Origin: a virus
IMG/VR virus record: IMGVR_UViG_3300008448_000052
Reading direction: 5' to 3' (one strand)
Length of the DNA stretch: 64,000 bases
The notes under the pieces: model-generated
Told to the model about the DNA's origin: nothing
What the model saw: only the letters and a program-made list of their open reading frames with translations
Database searches by the model: none
Shown here: in pieces, positions 37,676 to 40,224 of the stretch
Position numbering within the stretch: the stretch's first letter is position 1
Layout of the letters: every line of letters begins with the position of its first letter
Position numbers and translations under genes: made by a program

Positions 37676-37704
37676 AGTATACAATAATGACTACTATTTG
37701 TCAA
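37676..37704 (-). promoter_or_regulatory. consensus sigma70 promoter TTGACA-17-TATACT (minus strand)
   Basis: rc of 37699-37704 = TTGACA, 17-nt spacer, rc of 37676-37681 = TATACT; points at the tRNA-like element and the downstream operon. Confidence 0.55.
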
Positions 37705-37901
37705 CGTCTTTTAAGTAAAAGAGCTAAGAATATTAAAATGAATAGACTAGTAAAGCCGCCCCAAATTGGCATTGTTACCCAAAACCACGACAAATCTATA
37801 TAACCAGTCAACTTAAGTCCAATAAGTAATATGGCTAATAAACCAAAGAAACCAATGCCGCCTGAGCCTTTTTCATTTTTAATTAATTCTTTAGCTTCCA
37901 T
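37701..37901 (-). CDS. small two-TM membrane protein
   Basis: 66 aa with two hydrophobic helices; downstream of and coupled to the Prs-like gene. Confidence 0.4.
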   Translation of the reverse strand: MEAKELIKNEKGSGGIGFFGLLAILLIGLKLTGYIDLSWFWVTMPIWGGFTSLFILIFLALLLKRR

Positions 37902-38710
37902 TATTTCTTATCTCCTGTGTTTTGTATCATTGAACCATGATAGTTGTAAACTTCGTCTAAACCGTTAATGTGTAAATGTTCTATACCCTTAGAATAAATA
38001 CCATGAGTTGTGTATAATGCAACCTTATTAGCTCCAGACTCTTTTAATAGTTTTGCAGCCGCAATGAATGTTGCGCCGCCATCACATAAATCGTCTACTA
38101 TAAGAATAGTTTTACCAGTTAAATCAATGGGAAACTTGTGTTTATATTTTAAACCTTCAATGGCACCAGTTTCTTGATTACGTTTCTTTTCTAGAATGAT
38201 AGGGGCTCCATAGTATTCTTCATCATATTGATAGCCACGAGCCGCCGCACCAGCATCAGGAAAACATACATAGTCAGTATTCGATTGTTTTAACACTTGT
38301 TGAATTCTAGGTGAAGGATTTATGTTAATAATGCTAGGCATTATAATGTCTTTAACAGCTTTTATATTGTGCATGTCCACTGTTGTAATGCTTTCAAATA
38401 CTTGACCCATAAGTCTTAAAAAAGGATATAGCGCAAACGTAGACGTGTTTGTTGTAGTTTTGTCTTGACGCGCATAGGGTAGTGTATCACAAAATAAATT
38501 TGCTTTTTTATTAGTTAAAGTAAGTAATAGGTGACCCAATTGATATAGGTGAAAAATTTCCGCTTCATTTTCAAATTTGTATTGAATTCTTACTTCATCT
38601 TTTTGTTTAGGCGCAGGGTTTAAATGCCATGCTTGTGAAGTGCCATCAGGAAATTTAGTAATTTCAAATTCAATAAGTTGTCCAGTCGTCTCGTTAGTAA
38701 TGATAATCAT
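37901..38710 (-). CDS. ribose-phosphate pyrophosphokinase (Prs)-like / Adps-like phosphoribosyltransferase-fold protein
   Basis: ILIVDDLCDGGATFIAAAKLL PRPP-binding loop of type I PRTases; 269 aa with an N-terminal Prs-like half. Confidence 0.6.
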   Translation of the reverse strand: MIIITNETTGQLIEFEITKFPDGTSQAWHLNPAPKQKDEVRIQYKFENEAEIFHLYQLGHLLLTLTNKKANLFCDTLPYARQDKTTTNTSTFALYPFLRLMGQVFESITTVDMHNIKAVKDIIMPSIININPSPRIQQVLKQSNTDYVCFPDAGAAARGYQYDEEYYGAPIILEKKRNQETGAIEGLKYKHKFPIDLTGKTILIVDDLCDGGATFIAAAKLLKESGANKVALYTTHGIYSKGIEHLHINGLDEVYNYHGSMIQNTGDKK

Positions 38711-38814
38711 ATAGGTCCTTTTTGTAAAATGTGGAAGTCTCTCCTCCCTGTCACCTTTGTTTTGTCATCCAAGGTCAACGAATAGGGCTCACTAATCCCT
38801 ACTGTGTTTTTTCT

Positions 38815-40224
38815 TTATTGTAATTTACTGTCTGTGTTTACGCCAATTGTGTTTAACACTGCTTTTCCTGCATCAGTTTGTGCAAAGCCTTCAACAAGGG
38901 CACCCAATTGCATGCCGCCTTTAGCTGTAAAAACATCACCTACAGATTTAATGCCACTTTGTGCATCTCCACCTGAAATAATCATTTTAACTTCGGCAGA
39001 AGATAGTGCTTTAGCTTGTTCAACGCCAACTGCTTGAGTAGCTTTAATTTGCTCAACTGTGATGAGATATTGTTGGTATTCTTTATTAGAACCAATTTCT
39101 TTAGCTAGTGTAACCTGAGCTGCTACTGGTGCCATTTCCATTGCTTTTTGAGCTTCGGCTCTTGCCATACCCATAGCTTTTTCAGCTTCGGCATTAGCTA
39201 CACCATTAACTTTAACACCTTCGGCTTCTGCTTGTTGTAATGCAAAGTTACCATCAGCGGCTCTCTTAGTCACTTCAAGATCGGCTTCTGCTTGTAATTT
39301 TTTAGTTTGTAAATTGGCTTGTGCTGTAATGACAGAAGTAACTTTAGCTTGTTCAGCGGCAATTTCAGCAACTTGTTTATTAATGTTTGCAGAGTTAACA
39401 TGTTCAACTTGTAAAATTTGCATTTCTTTTTCTTTAGTAACACGTTGTTGATCTTTAATGTTTTGTTGTGCAAATTGATTAGCTAATTCAACTTCGCGTT
39501 GAGCTTCAACTTTACGAAGACCAGTAACTTGTGTCGCTTGTTCTCTAGAAAGAGTAGCCTCGCGTTGAGCTTCAATTTCAGATACTTCTGCAACTTTTTT
39601 ATTATTGGCTACAGCTTGACGAGATTCCATTTCAATGAATGATTTTTTCTTTTCCATGATGTTAGCAATTACTTTAGAGTTAGCCGAGTCACGTAAATCC
39701 ATTAATTCAATGTTCTTAACTGTAGATACGCCCCAATTGGACAATTGCTCCCCAACTTCTTTAGTAAATGCATCACCAAACGAACTGCGACCTTGCATAA
39801 TTTCTTCAATTTCAGAAGATGCTAGCACTACACGAACTGCACCTTGAACAATGGCTTTTAGTTGAGAATGTAATTCATCAAAGCTAGATACACGTTGTGC
39901 GGCTACGTTTGATTCTGTTATGCGGAAAAAGGCTTTAACGTCCACTCTAAATGGTAAGCGTCCTTTGTCGTATGCTTCATAGTCAGTTAAGTCTAAGTCA
40001 AATACGCTAGTGGGTAGAGTAATTTTTGTTATACCAATAACTGGCAAAAATGAAGGCCATTCGTAATACGAGTTACCATTTCCAGTATCTTTACCATACG
40101 ATGTTGTACTGCCAGCAGACTGGACAATGTGTACTTCGTTTGTAGAAACCACTCGACGGAAAAATAGTGGCAGAAAAAATCCTGCTAATAATGCGACAAA
40201 TGCTAAAATAGATGCAATAATCAT
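38815..40224 (-). CDS. SPFH/band-7 flotillin-like membrane protein
   Basis: N-terminal TM, SPFH-like core (…RVDVKAFFRITE…IMQGRSSFGDAF…), long A/E/Q-rich coiled coil like flotillin EA repeats. Confidence 0.65.
   Translation of the reverse strand: MIIASILAFVALLAGFFLPLFFRRVVSTNEVHIVQSAGSTTSYGKDTGNGNSYYEWPSFLPVIGITKITLPTSVFDLDLTDYEAYDKGRLPFRVDVKAFFRITESNVAAQRVSSFDELHSQLKAIVQGAVRVVLASSEIEEIMQGRSSFGDAFTKEVGEQLSNWGVSTVKNIELMDLRDSANSKVIANIMEKKKSFIEMESRQAVANNKKVAEVSEIEAQREATLSREQATQVTGLRKVEAQREVELANQFAQQNIKDQQRVTKEKEMQILQVEHVNSANINKQVAEIAAEQAKVTSVITAQANLQTKKLQAEADLEVTKRAADGNFALQQAEAEGVKVNGVANAEAEKAMGMARAEAQKAMEMAPVAAQVTLAKEIGSNKEYQQYLITVEQIKATQAVGVEQAKALSSAEVKMIISGGDAQSGIKSVGDVFTAKGGMQLGALVEGFAQTDAGKAVLNTIGVNTDSKLQ

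Follow-up and report, generated by a model that had tools for sequence, protein, structure and literature searches.

The window analysed here, 64,000 nucleotides of viral DNA from IMG/VR record IMGVR_UViG_3300008448_000052, carries on its minus strand a gene of 469 amino acids (aa) whose product is almost certainly a flotillin-like membrane protein of the SPFH (Band 7) superfamily. As the preliminary description of this DNA had assumed, the gene resides in a phage: the window is a segment of a tailed-phage genome, in which a major head protein, a DNA polymerase and an exonuclease were recognised, with the structural genes on the plus strand and the replication and accessory genes on a minus-strand arm (Table 1). 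We found that the SPFH gene stands alone, without a dedicated co-inherited partner, and that its association with NAD+ reconstitution and RNA-repair clusters across phages is the one new lead to what it does. The explanation that we favour, tentatively when its parts and the role are taken jointly, is that of a stand-alone, probably cage-forming inner-membrane scaffold that would preserve the membrane during infection.

The identification draws on the open reading frame (ORF), Pfam, AlphaFold2, Foldseek and composition, all of which agree with the architecture first described for this protein, namely an N-terminal transmembrane (TM) helix, an SPFH core and a long helix rich in Glu, Ala and Gln. 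Pfam Band_7 (PF01145) was matched by residues 25-207 (E = 6.1e-15; 56.1 bits against a cutoff of 23.6). The AlphaFold2 model, a monomer predicted from an alignment of 38 homologues, had a mean predicted local distance difference test (pLDDT) score of 73.5, with values of 85-94 in the SPFH core, and comprised an N-terminal helix (residues 2-21), the alpha/beta domain (23-180), one uninterrupted helix (185-379) and three short C-terminal helices. The hydropathy segment begins at residue 1, and the long helix consists of 18% Ala, 13% Glu and 11% Gln. When the model was compared with the PDB using Foldseek, all 50 top matches listed were SPFH-family structures, major vault protein among them; the flotillin-1/2 complex ranked first (9l3g, E = 1.5e-11; 9bq2, E = 1.6e-10), followed by stomatin (16-mer), prohibitin (PHB), HflK/C, QmcA-YbbJ and erlin cages. 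Superposition on the stomatin and flotillin SPFH domains gave root-mean-square deviations of 1.8-2.8 Å at a probability of 1.00, and crystal structures of the stomatin SPFH domain differed from the model by about 2 Å. A profile of the family searched against PDB sequences matched QmcA (E = 1e-10) and, over SPFH2 and the coiled coil (residues 131-359), flotillin-1 (E = 2e-6). The predicted membrane anchor and C-terminal coiled-coil extension are likewise those of the SPFH superfamily.

The preliminary description had allowed that, were no SPFH fold detected, the sequence would be a coiled-coil structural protein instead. The long helical region is compatible with such a virion protein, and residues 273-322 gave weak tblastn matches (E of 5-9) to annotated head-morphogenesis genes. 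These matches are not significant, and the gene lies on the strand opposite the structural module, within the replication and accessory arm. Because Band_7 scored well above the Pfam threshold and the alpha/beta SPFH fold was found, the structural-protein reading is refuted, and we leave it practically no probability.

Conservation within the family gives further indications as to topology and assembly. Two arginines directly behind the TM helix, R23 and R24, are invariant in the 38 homologues, so that by the positive-inside rule the bulk of the protein is predicted to be cytoplasmic. Altogether about 95 columns are invariant across the 38 homologue sequences, including, in the C-terminal region, the motifs EIG.N..YQ.YL and GG (invariant columns E376-L387, K413, I415, G436, G437 and E445). 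Length variation is accommodated in the middle of the long helix, with insertions and deletions only in alignment columns ~300-430. By analogy with its structural homologues, the phage protein would assemble into a ring or cage on the membrane, the long helix presumably forming the coiled-coil wall of the oligomer. Phage copies that are truncated or decayed were not noted, save those cut by contig ends, and the SPFH family is under strong purifying conservation.

We next consider how widespread this family is. A word-indexed protein search yielded upwards of 2,900 matches at E ≤ 1e-5, the best 120 of which were 54-64% identical over nearly their full length (431-504 aa); the SPFH ORF is therefore no chance ORF. 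When 1.84 billion cluster representatives (50% identity) were searched exhaustively, 642 matched at E ≤ 1e-3 and 152 at E ≤ 1e-30, and by sequence the family appears as a compact, well-separated clade inside the huge SPFH superfamily. The identical protein sequence was present on contigs of two NCBI-deposited assemblies and one JGI metagenome; a megablast search of the window against GenBank phages returned no close relative. A survey of related phages, suggested earlier as a check, found the family in 51 GenBank records and at 77 IMG/VR loci, the latter on contigs of 4 kb to 517 kb. The 51 GenBank copies are full length and 44-50% identical over 93-95% of the length; 37 of them belong to Vibrio Thalassavirus (T5-like) genomes (for example, Chester gp119 and Gary gp121), and the other carriers are Xanthomonas phages X1, BUDD, Ep026 and PhiXhv, Erwinia phage Ep032, Brevundimonas jumbo phages and a 635-kb uncultured phage. 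Some of these copies are already labelled 'flotillin protein' or 'SPFH domain-containing protein', and the X1 paper counts its copy among putative host-metabolism genes (PMC13384950). The earlier statement that such genes are rare on lytic phages is thus borne out in terms of frequency (~0.1% of GenBank phage records carry the family), but it has to be tempered, since the gene recurs in unrelated phages and has been annotated there before.

The family is common to cells and phages, homologues being encoded in at least 300 species genomes as well. Large chromosomal contigs carry the gene in Methylotenera, Campylobacter, Helicobacter and several Alphaproteobacteria (50-59% identity), and its neighbours are housekeeping genes (MFS transporter, periplasmic binding protein, PdxT-like, glutamine-synthetase-like and MarC), with synteny kept within the Methylotenera, the Campylobacter and the Alphaproteobacteria group. 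These two features show that the bacterial copies are chromosomal, and they rule out that the copies are prophage genes. Such close cellular homologues, together with the lack of a fixed position of the gene in phage genomes, are what would be expected of a host-acquired passenger of generic or negligible benefit to the phage. That reading is disfavoured because the family is conserved: full-length copies persist in at least 51 divergent phage lineages with genomes of ~50 kb to more than 500 kb. In addition, in a rough neighbour-joining tree the sampled bacterial sequences fall within a wider range of phage sequences, so that the latter cover more of the family tree; the bacterial sample, the 80 best matches, is biased towards the query, and for this reason we draw no conclusion from the tree on the direction of transfer. 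Overall, we regard a passenger gene as an unlikely explanation.

Given that the preliminary description had paired the SPFH protein with a 66-aa two-TM protein, we asked whether any partner travels with the gene. The 66-aa ORF is as described, with two hydrophobic segments beginning at residues 11 and 40, and it is the second gene downstream; the proposed partner role did not hold. The Prs-like gene lies in between, 104 nucleotides (nt) from the SPFH gene, and the ATG of the 66-aa gene overlaps the TAA stop of the Prs-like gene, so that any translational coupling would be to the latter and not to the SPFH gene. For a wider view, 82 loci (81 fetched plus the window) were subjected to ORF calling and BLASTP clustering and collapsed to 51 lineages at 85% SPFH identity. 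The 66-aa family (phrog_1374, to which no function is assigned) was found beside SPFH in one of the 51 lineages, solely the window's own; it was absent beside the SPFH homologues of Vibrio phage Chester and Xanthomonas phage X1, and tblastn of the 66-aa protein against GenBank phages returned nothing. Small same-strand TM ORFs of any family do occur within two genes of SPFH in 16 of the 51 lineages, but they are not mutually homologous, and their enrichment is not significant (7.9% of near against 4.8% of far ORFs; odds ratio 1.7, p = 0.086). On these grounds the 66-aa protein was rejected as the SPFH partner. A conserved three-gene module of the SPFH, 269-aa and 66-aa genes was rejected as well: the 268-aa and 66-aa genes downstream of SPFH in X1, which encode an ATP-grasp protein and a soluble protein, respectively, are unrelated to those of the window by BLASTP.

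The immediate neighbours were also examined by a Pfam scan of the 141 ORFs of at least 70 aa that lie within two genes of SPFH in 50 lineages. No Pfam family was found in more than three of them, and no NfeD, protease, holin or endolysin appeared among the 25 most frequent of the 57 families. This result bears on two alternatives. The first is that the protein sets the timing of lysis or excludes superinfection, either by strengthening the membrane against the holin of the phage itself or by preventing the entry of competitor DNA. SPFH scaffolds do in general organise membrane patches, and four membrane-associated ORFs lie in or beside this part of the window (SPFH, the 66-aa and 160-aa TM proteins and an 88-aa lipoprotein-like ORF). 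The small membrane proteins near SPFH are lineage-specific, however, and neither holin nor endolysin nor spanin is among the families listed for the immediate neighbours; in Vibrio phage Gary, some 16 kb separate SPFH from the holin and endolysin. In view of this lack of linkage to lysis genes, a role in lysis timing is disfavoured, and we consider it quite improbable.

The second alternative is control of a membrane protease in the manner of HflK/C, whereby host FtsH or another membrane protease would be held inside or kept outside a cage, protecting phage proteins or reprogramming host proteolysis. B. subtilis flotillins associate with FtsH, and the HflK/C-FtsH structures 7wi3, 9cz2 and 7vhq are among the significant fold matches. 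HflC-like control has also been speculated for another phage SPFH protein in its annotation (PMC10269572). Against this, HflK/C is a periplasm-facing heterodimeric pair, whereas the phage has one gene and the RR pair predicts a cytoplasmic bulk; flotillin and stomatin outscore HflK/C in the fold search; and no protease or protease-substrate genes recur among the families listed for the neighbours. This mode of action therefore seems to us to have a low probability.

A clearer signal came from the wider surroundings of the gene, within 8 kb on either side. NARP1 is a two-gene NAD+ reconstitution pathway in which the gene called "Prs" is an ADPR-PP synthetase (Adps) and that called "Nampt" is a nicotinamide ADPR-transferase (Namat) (bioRxiv 10.1101/2024.02.11.579819). 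No neighbour family occurred in more than 8 of the 51 lineages and none is obligatory, yet the most frequent ones were NAMPT-like (8 lineages), T4 Rnl1-type RNA ligase and Macro-like (7 each), Prs-like, NMNAT-Nudix and a metallophosphoesterase of the same family as the 190-aa protein of the window (6 each), and PF09414 RNA ligase (5). A core NARP enzyme (Namat/Nampt, Adps or NMNAT-Nudix) was present in 13 of the 51 SPFH lineages, an RNA-repair gene in 15, and one or the other in 20. For comparison, NARP1 and NARP2 are found in 5.4% of whole phage genomes (bioRxiv 10.1101/2024.02.11.579819), and against that baseline, which refers to whole genomes of a different set, the 13 lineages are enriched (binomial p = 2e-6).

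The gene orders vary among these lineages, which come from several deep branches of the SPFH tree. The window has SPFH, Adps, 66, 64, metallophosphoesterase, Namat; the other loci have Rnl, Adps, Macro, SPFH, Namat (L012), Adps, SPFH, 62, Macro...Namat (L060), Adps, Namat, x, SPFH (L010), Macro, Namat, 122, SPFH (L052), SPFH, Adps (L073) and SPFH, NMNAT-Nudix...Macro, x, Nampt (L042). In L012, L060, L042 and L032, all from IMG/VR, the SPFH gene is inserted among the genes of NARP1-AP or NARP2 clusters, an arrangement that goes unmentioned in the main text of the NARP papers.

In the window itself, positions 35110-38710 on the minus strand look like a candidate NARP1 cluster. The Prs-like protein, the candidate Adps, matched Pfam Pribosyl_synth and Pribosyltran and phrog_619 (E = 2e-52) and scored below the NCBIfam cutoffs for true Prs; it is up to 39% identical, over partial length, to Prs-like genes of E. 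coli/Shigella phages of ~86-90 kb, which we take to be of the Felixounavirus type. The candidate Namat matched Pfam NAPRTase and NAMPT_N and phrog_448 (E = 1e-196). The Prs-like gene is the middle gene that the preliminary description had left without an identity, overlooking the candidate NAD+ reconstitution cluster that it forms with its neighbours. Three genes lie between the two candidates, encoding the 66-aa TM protein, a 64-aa sigma-70 region-4 protein and the 190-aa metallophosphoesterase. As the published extended pathway, NARP1-AP, employs a Macro-domain phosphatase, the metallophosphoesterase might by analogy be an alternative accessory phosphatase here. Two further neighbours deserve mention. 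A 787-aa fusion upstream of SPFH combines an AAA_33 kinase, a calcineurin-like phosphoesterase and a T4 Rnl1-type ligase, a complete set for RNA end-healing and sealing in one polypeptide, and a 73-aa protein with an Acb2/Tad1 hairpin is a candidate cyclic-nucleotide sponge against CBASS or Thoeris.

To see the association from the other side, we examined 80 IMG/VR loci retrieved with the Adps alignment. Namat was recovered at 78 of the 80 and Macro at 23, indicating that the survey method recovers the known NARP1 partners, but SPFH lay within 8 kb at just one, and we therefore rejected SPFH as a regular NARP1 component. The GenBank phage homologues are also found in differing settings (a tRNA cluster in Thalassavirus, an ATP-grasp gene next door in X1); none of them adjoins NARP genes, and none has been studied functionally. 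Within the Thalassavirus tRNA cluster, genes for an NDT-like nucleoside 2-deoxyribosyltransferase and a PnuC-like nicotinamide riboside/NMN transporter are found 1.2-2 kb downstream of SPFH (about 22526-23697 in Gary, L164; 8527-9701 in Chester, L001), and this stretch is an NAD-related neighbourhood distinct from the genome's NARP1 operon.

These data allow an evaluation of whether the protein is an accessory of NAD+ reconstitution itself, scaffolding precursor uptake (PnuC-type) or the NARP enzymes at the membrane, or supporting NADH-recycling respiration. The significant enrichment of SPFH inside or beside NARP1, NARP1-AP or NARP2 clusters of several lineages, in differing orders, speaks for it, as do the PnuC-like and NDT-like genes of Thalassavirus, and HflK/C has been linked to aerobic respiration (PMC12005517). 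Yet NARP1 works as a two-gene operon without SPFH, the NARP papers do not mention SPFH, a NARP enzyme is lacking within 8 kb in 38 of the 51 SPFH lineages, the reverse test yielded its single Adps locus, and the neighbours of the bacterial homologues are unrelated housekeeping genes. We consequently view a direct part in NAD+ reconstitution as very doubtful. Our reading is rather that the SPFH gene is a resident of an accessory island for effector-level counter-defence and nucleotide/NAD metabolism, and not a core NARP component.

This brings us back to the scaffold that we favour. After infection, the SPFH protein would insert in the inner membrane with its bulk in the cytoplasm, as the arginines behind the helix suggest, and, like its solved homologues, would homo-oligomerise to a dome or cage enclosing a membrane patch. 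Judging from the context, such a scaffold may keep the host membrane intact and energised during replication, most plausibly as an effector-level counter-defence against membrane-disrupting abortive-infection effectors. It would in this way complement the neighbouring genes, with NARP1 acting against NAD+ depletion, the kinase-phosphatase-ligase against RNA cleavage and the Acb2/Tad1-like protein against cyclic-nucleotide signalling. Of the roles put forward in the preliminary description, the genomic context favours interference with defence over lysis timing.

A more specific form of this proposal can be formulated, namely that phage flotillins are a dedicated counter-defence device, the cytoplasm-facing cage of which shields or sequesters patches of the inner membrane from pore-forming or depolarising effectors. 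The TM effectors of CBASS, Pycsar, Thoeris, retrons and other systems would thus fail to collapse the cell in time to prevent the production of progeny, and SPFH would be the membrane arm of an 'anti-effector toolkit', the other arms being NARP (NAD+), RNA repair and nucleotide sponges. Such a toolkit would explain the repeated insertion of SPFH into NARP clusters, although in this strict form we think the idea has only a small chance of being correct.

Several observations weigh against a protective role of the scaffold in general. PADLOC gave no match for the SPFH protein, and no anti-defence family is known to include an SPFH protein. The 51 lineages are not fully independent and the 5.4% baseline was taken from a different genome set; SPFH was all but missing from the Adps loci of the reverse test; and in Thalassavirus the gene belongs to the tRNA cluster, some 30 kb away from the Prs-like gene. 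The clustering may also merely reflect the gathering of accessory genes in permissive regions of larger phage genomes.

Regardless of which role applies, the present evidence is that of an ordinary, correctly recognised accessory gene, of a kind already annotated in phages and functionally unstudied. SPFH scaffolds are found throughout life, most of the bacterial ones without a clear physiological role, and for twenty years viral copies have appeared in gene lists with no function attached. Should a phage require its SPFH protein for a definable step, such as protection of the membrane in abortive infection, this would provide a tractable phenotype for the whole family, and a counter-defence SPFH, if true, would extend phage counter-defence by a structural, non-enzymatic class. 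In practical terms the lead is comparative, in that a strongly conserved, stand-alone gene is found repeatedly in or beside NAD+ reconstitution and RNA-repair clusters, and cultivable carriers exist, including Vibrio phage Gary and its relatives, Xanthomonas phage X1 and the Brevundimonas jumbo phages.

The remaining features of the window are listed in Table 1. Scans for promoters and terminators gave match counts equal to the shuffle expectation, and they consequently do not inform the operon structure. A strong sigma-70-like promoter match (TTGACA-17-TATACT) lies ~170 nt upstream of a tRNA-like element, which lies within the intergenic region 37421-37700 and is followed by a T-run. The element scored 50.8 bits with the Rfam tRNA model (gathering score 29); ARAGORN made no call by default and called 'tRNA-??? 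(tc)' under relaxed settings. Its acceptor, D and T arms are perfect, and its anticodon arm is a 5-bp stem with a 4-nt UUCG loop, so that it has no normal anticodon; because it is identical in three sister contigs, there is no covariation evidence. Just upstream of SPFH are the genes for the 160-aa two-TM protein and the 88-aa lipoprotein-like protein, both lineage-specific. The latter has a sub-threshold match to DUF4884, whose members are mostly from Bacteroidota, and the GC content of the window is 29-40% in 2-kb segments; together these hint at a Bacteroidota host. Three consecutive genes on the same strand encode a 495-aa nSTAND3/AAA ATPase, a ThiF/E1-like protein and a protein weakly matching the prokaryotic JAB family; together they might serve the phage for ubiquitin-like conjugation or deconjugation. 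Finally, for the gene adjoining that of the DnaB-like helicase, a precomputed Pfam match to Mom (PF25680) on the sister contig L004 suggests a DNA-modification function.

Table 1 Features of the 64,000-nucleotide window, with the parts of the SPFH protein
Feature	Coordinates	Strand	Basis
Structural genes of the window	53-20163	+	
Replication and accessory arm	20413-62074	-	
Gene adjoining DnaB-like helicase	28437-29204	-	Pfam Mom match on sister contig
Acb2/Tad1-hairpin protein, 73 aa	31651-31872	-	Pfam, 30.4 bits against cutoff of 27
NAMPT-like protein, 513 aa, candidate nicotinamide ADPR-transferase (Namat) of NARP1	35110-36651	-	Pfam, PHROG
Metallophosphoesterase, 190 aa, between Adps and Namat candidates	36672-37244	-	Pfam Metallophos, phrog_547
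tRNA-like element	37440-37509	-	Rfam
Sigma-70-like promoter match	37704-37676		
Two-TM protein, 66 aa, phrog_1374	37701-37901	-	ORF, PHROG, hydropathy
Prs-like protein, 269 aa, candidate ADPR-PP synthetase (Adps) of NARP1	37901-38710	-	Pfam, PHROG
Flotillin-like SPFH/Band-7 gene, 469 aa	38815-40224 (stop codon 38815-38817)	-	ORF, Pfam, AlphaFold2, Foldseek, PDB profile
SPFH protein: conserved C-terminal region, aa 380-469	38818-39087	-	Invariant alignment columns
SPFH protein: long A/E/Q-rich helix, aa 185-379, presumed coiled-coil wall	39088-39672	-	AlphaFold2, composition
SPFH protein: SPFH (Band 7) alpha/beta domain, aa 23-184	39673-40158	-	Pfam, AlphaFold2, Foldseek
SPFH protein: N-terminal TM helix, aa 2-21, then invariant R23-R24	40162-40221	-	AlphaFold2, hydropathy, alignment
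Basic protein, 101 aa, phrog_13625, lineage-specific	40233-40538	-	Ends 8 nt ahead of SPFH start
Two-TM protein, 160 aa, and lipoprotein-like protein, 88 aa	40784-41519	-	
Kinase/phosphoesterase/T4 Rnl1-type RNA ligase fusion, 787 aa	41516-43879	-	Pfam AAA_33, Metallophos, RNA_lig_T4_1
Three consecutive genes, ATPase to JAB-like	45732-48893	-	phrog_10440 (ATPase)
ThiF/E1-like protein	47222-48007	-	
Prokaryotic JAB-like protein	47949-48893	-	Weak match

Comparison with known systems places the protein among, but apart from, previously described SPFH proteins. Band-7 ORFs in phages were listed by 2006 (PMC1524935), the T4-like phages 44RR, Aeh1 and RB43 being among the viral carriers, and viral SPFH proteins have been noted repeatedly since (PMC1524935, PMC10892097, PMC10269572, PMC13239085, PMC13384950), likewise without functional work on their role. 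These others, such as the 'SPFH lipoprotein' of Vi01-like phages, the HflC-like protein of Burkholderia phage CSP3 and the SPFH proteins of giant viruses, belong to shorter families of the stomatin, HflC or lipoprotein type, to which the present protein shows no detectable sequence relationship. The protein studied here had no PHROG match and no tblastn match to 44RR/Aeh1/RB43, Vi01-like or CSP3-type phages, and a search of BFVD gave 29 matches at E ≤ 0.001, giant-virus proteins among them.

Homologues of the gene are often labelled "flotillin" by JGI. With E. coli YqiK the phage protein shares an N-terminal TM helix with RR behind it, then the SPFH domain and an extended helix rich in Glu and Ala; residues 12-438 of the 553 of YqiK, the longer protein, are collinear with phage residues 1-354 (BLASTP, 23% identity, E = 7e-6), and hhalign gave a probability of 88% for the coiled coil. 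B. subtilis FloT was compared via the NCBIfam equivalog model NF058507, against which the phage protein reached a weak 29.6 bits (cutoff 700), and the Pfam Flot (flotillin C-terminal) domain was not matched at E ≤ 0.01, Band_7 alone being reported. In E. coli yqiJ lies ahead of yqiK, whereas an NfeD/YqiJ-type operon partner is not found beside the phage gene, nor was the NfeD family (YqiJ, YuaF, YbbJ) seen beside the bacterial homologues examined. Owing to the FloT score below the cutoff, the missing Flot domain and the missing NfeD partner, we conclude that the phage protein is flotillin-like in architecture and not an orthologue of FloT or YqiK.

It also differs from the HflK/HflC pair, with its periplasmic bulk, in that the phage locus has a single SPFH gene, and HflK/C stands below flotillin and stomatin in the fold-search ranking. 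The closest likeness is to the solved cages (flotillin-1/2, 9BQ2 and 9L3G; stomatin, prohibitin, erlin, HflK/C and QmcA-YbbJ), which were matched by Foldseek with E-values of 1.5e-11 to 1e-7 at a sequence identity of just 12-21%. Unlike the flotillin-1/2 complex, the phage protein would be a single-gene homomer, with a cage form predicted from these homologues; the order of its modules is the same as in the solved cages, where it builds the wall and the roof.

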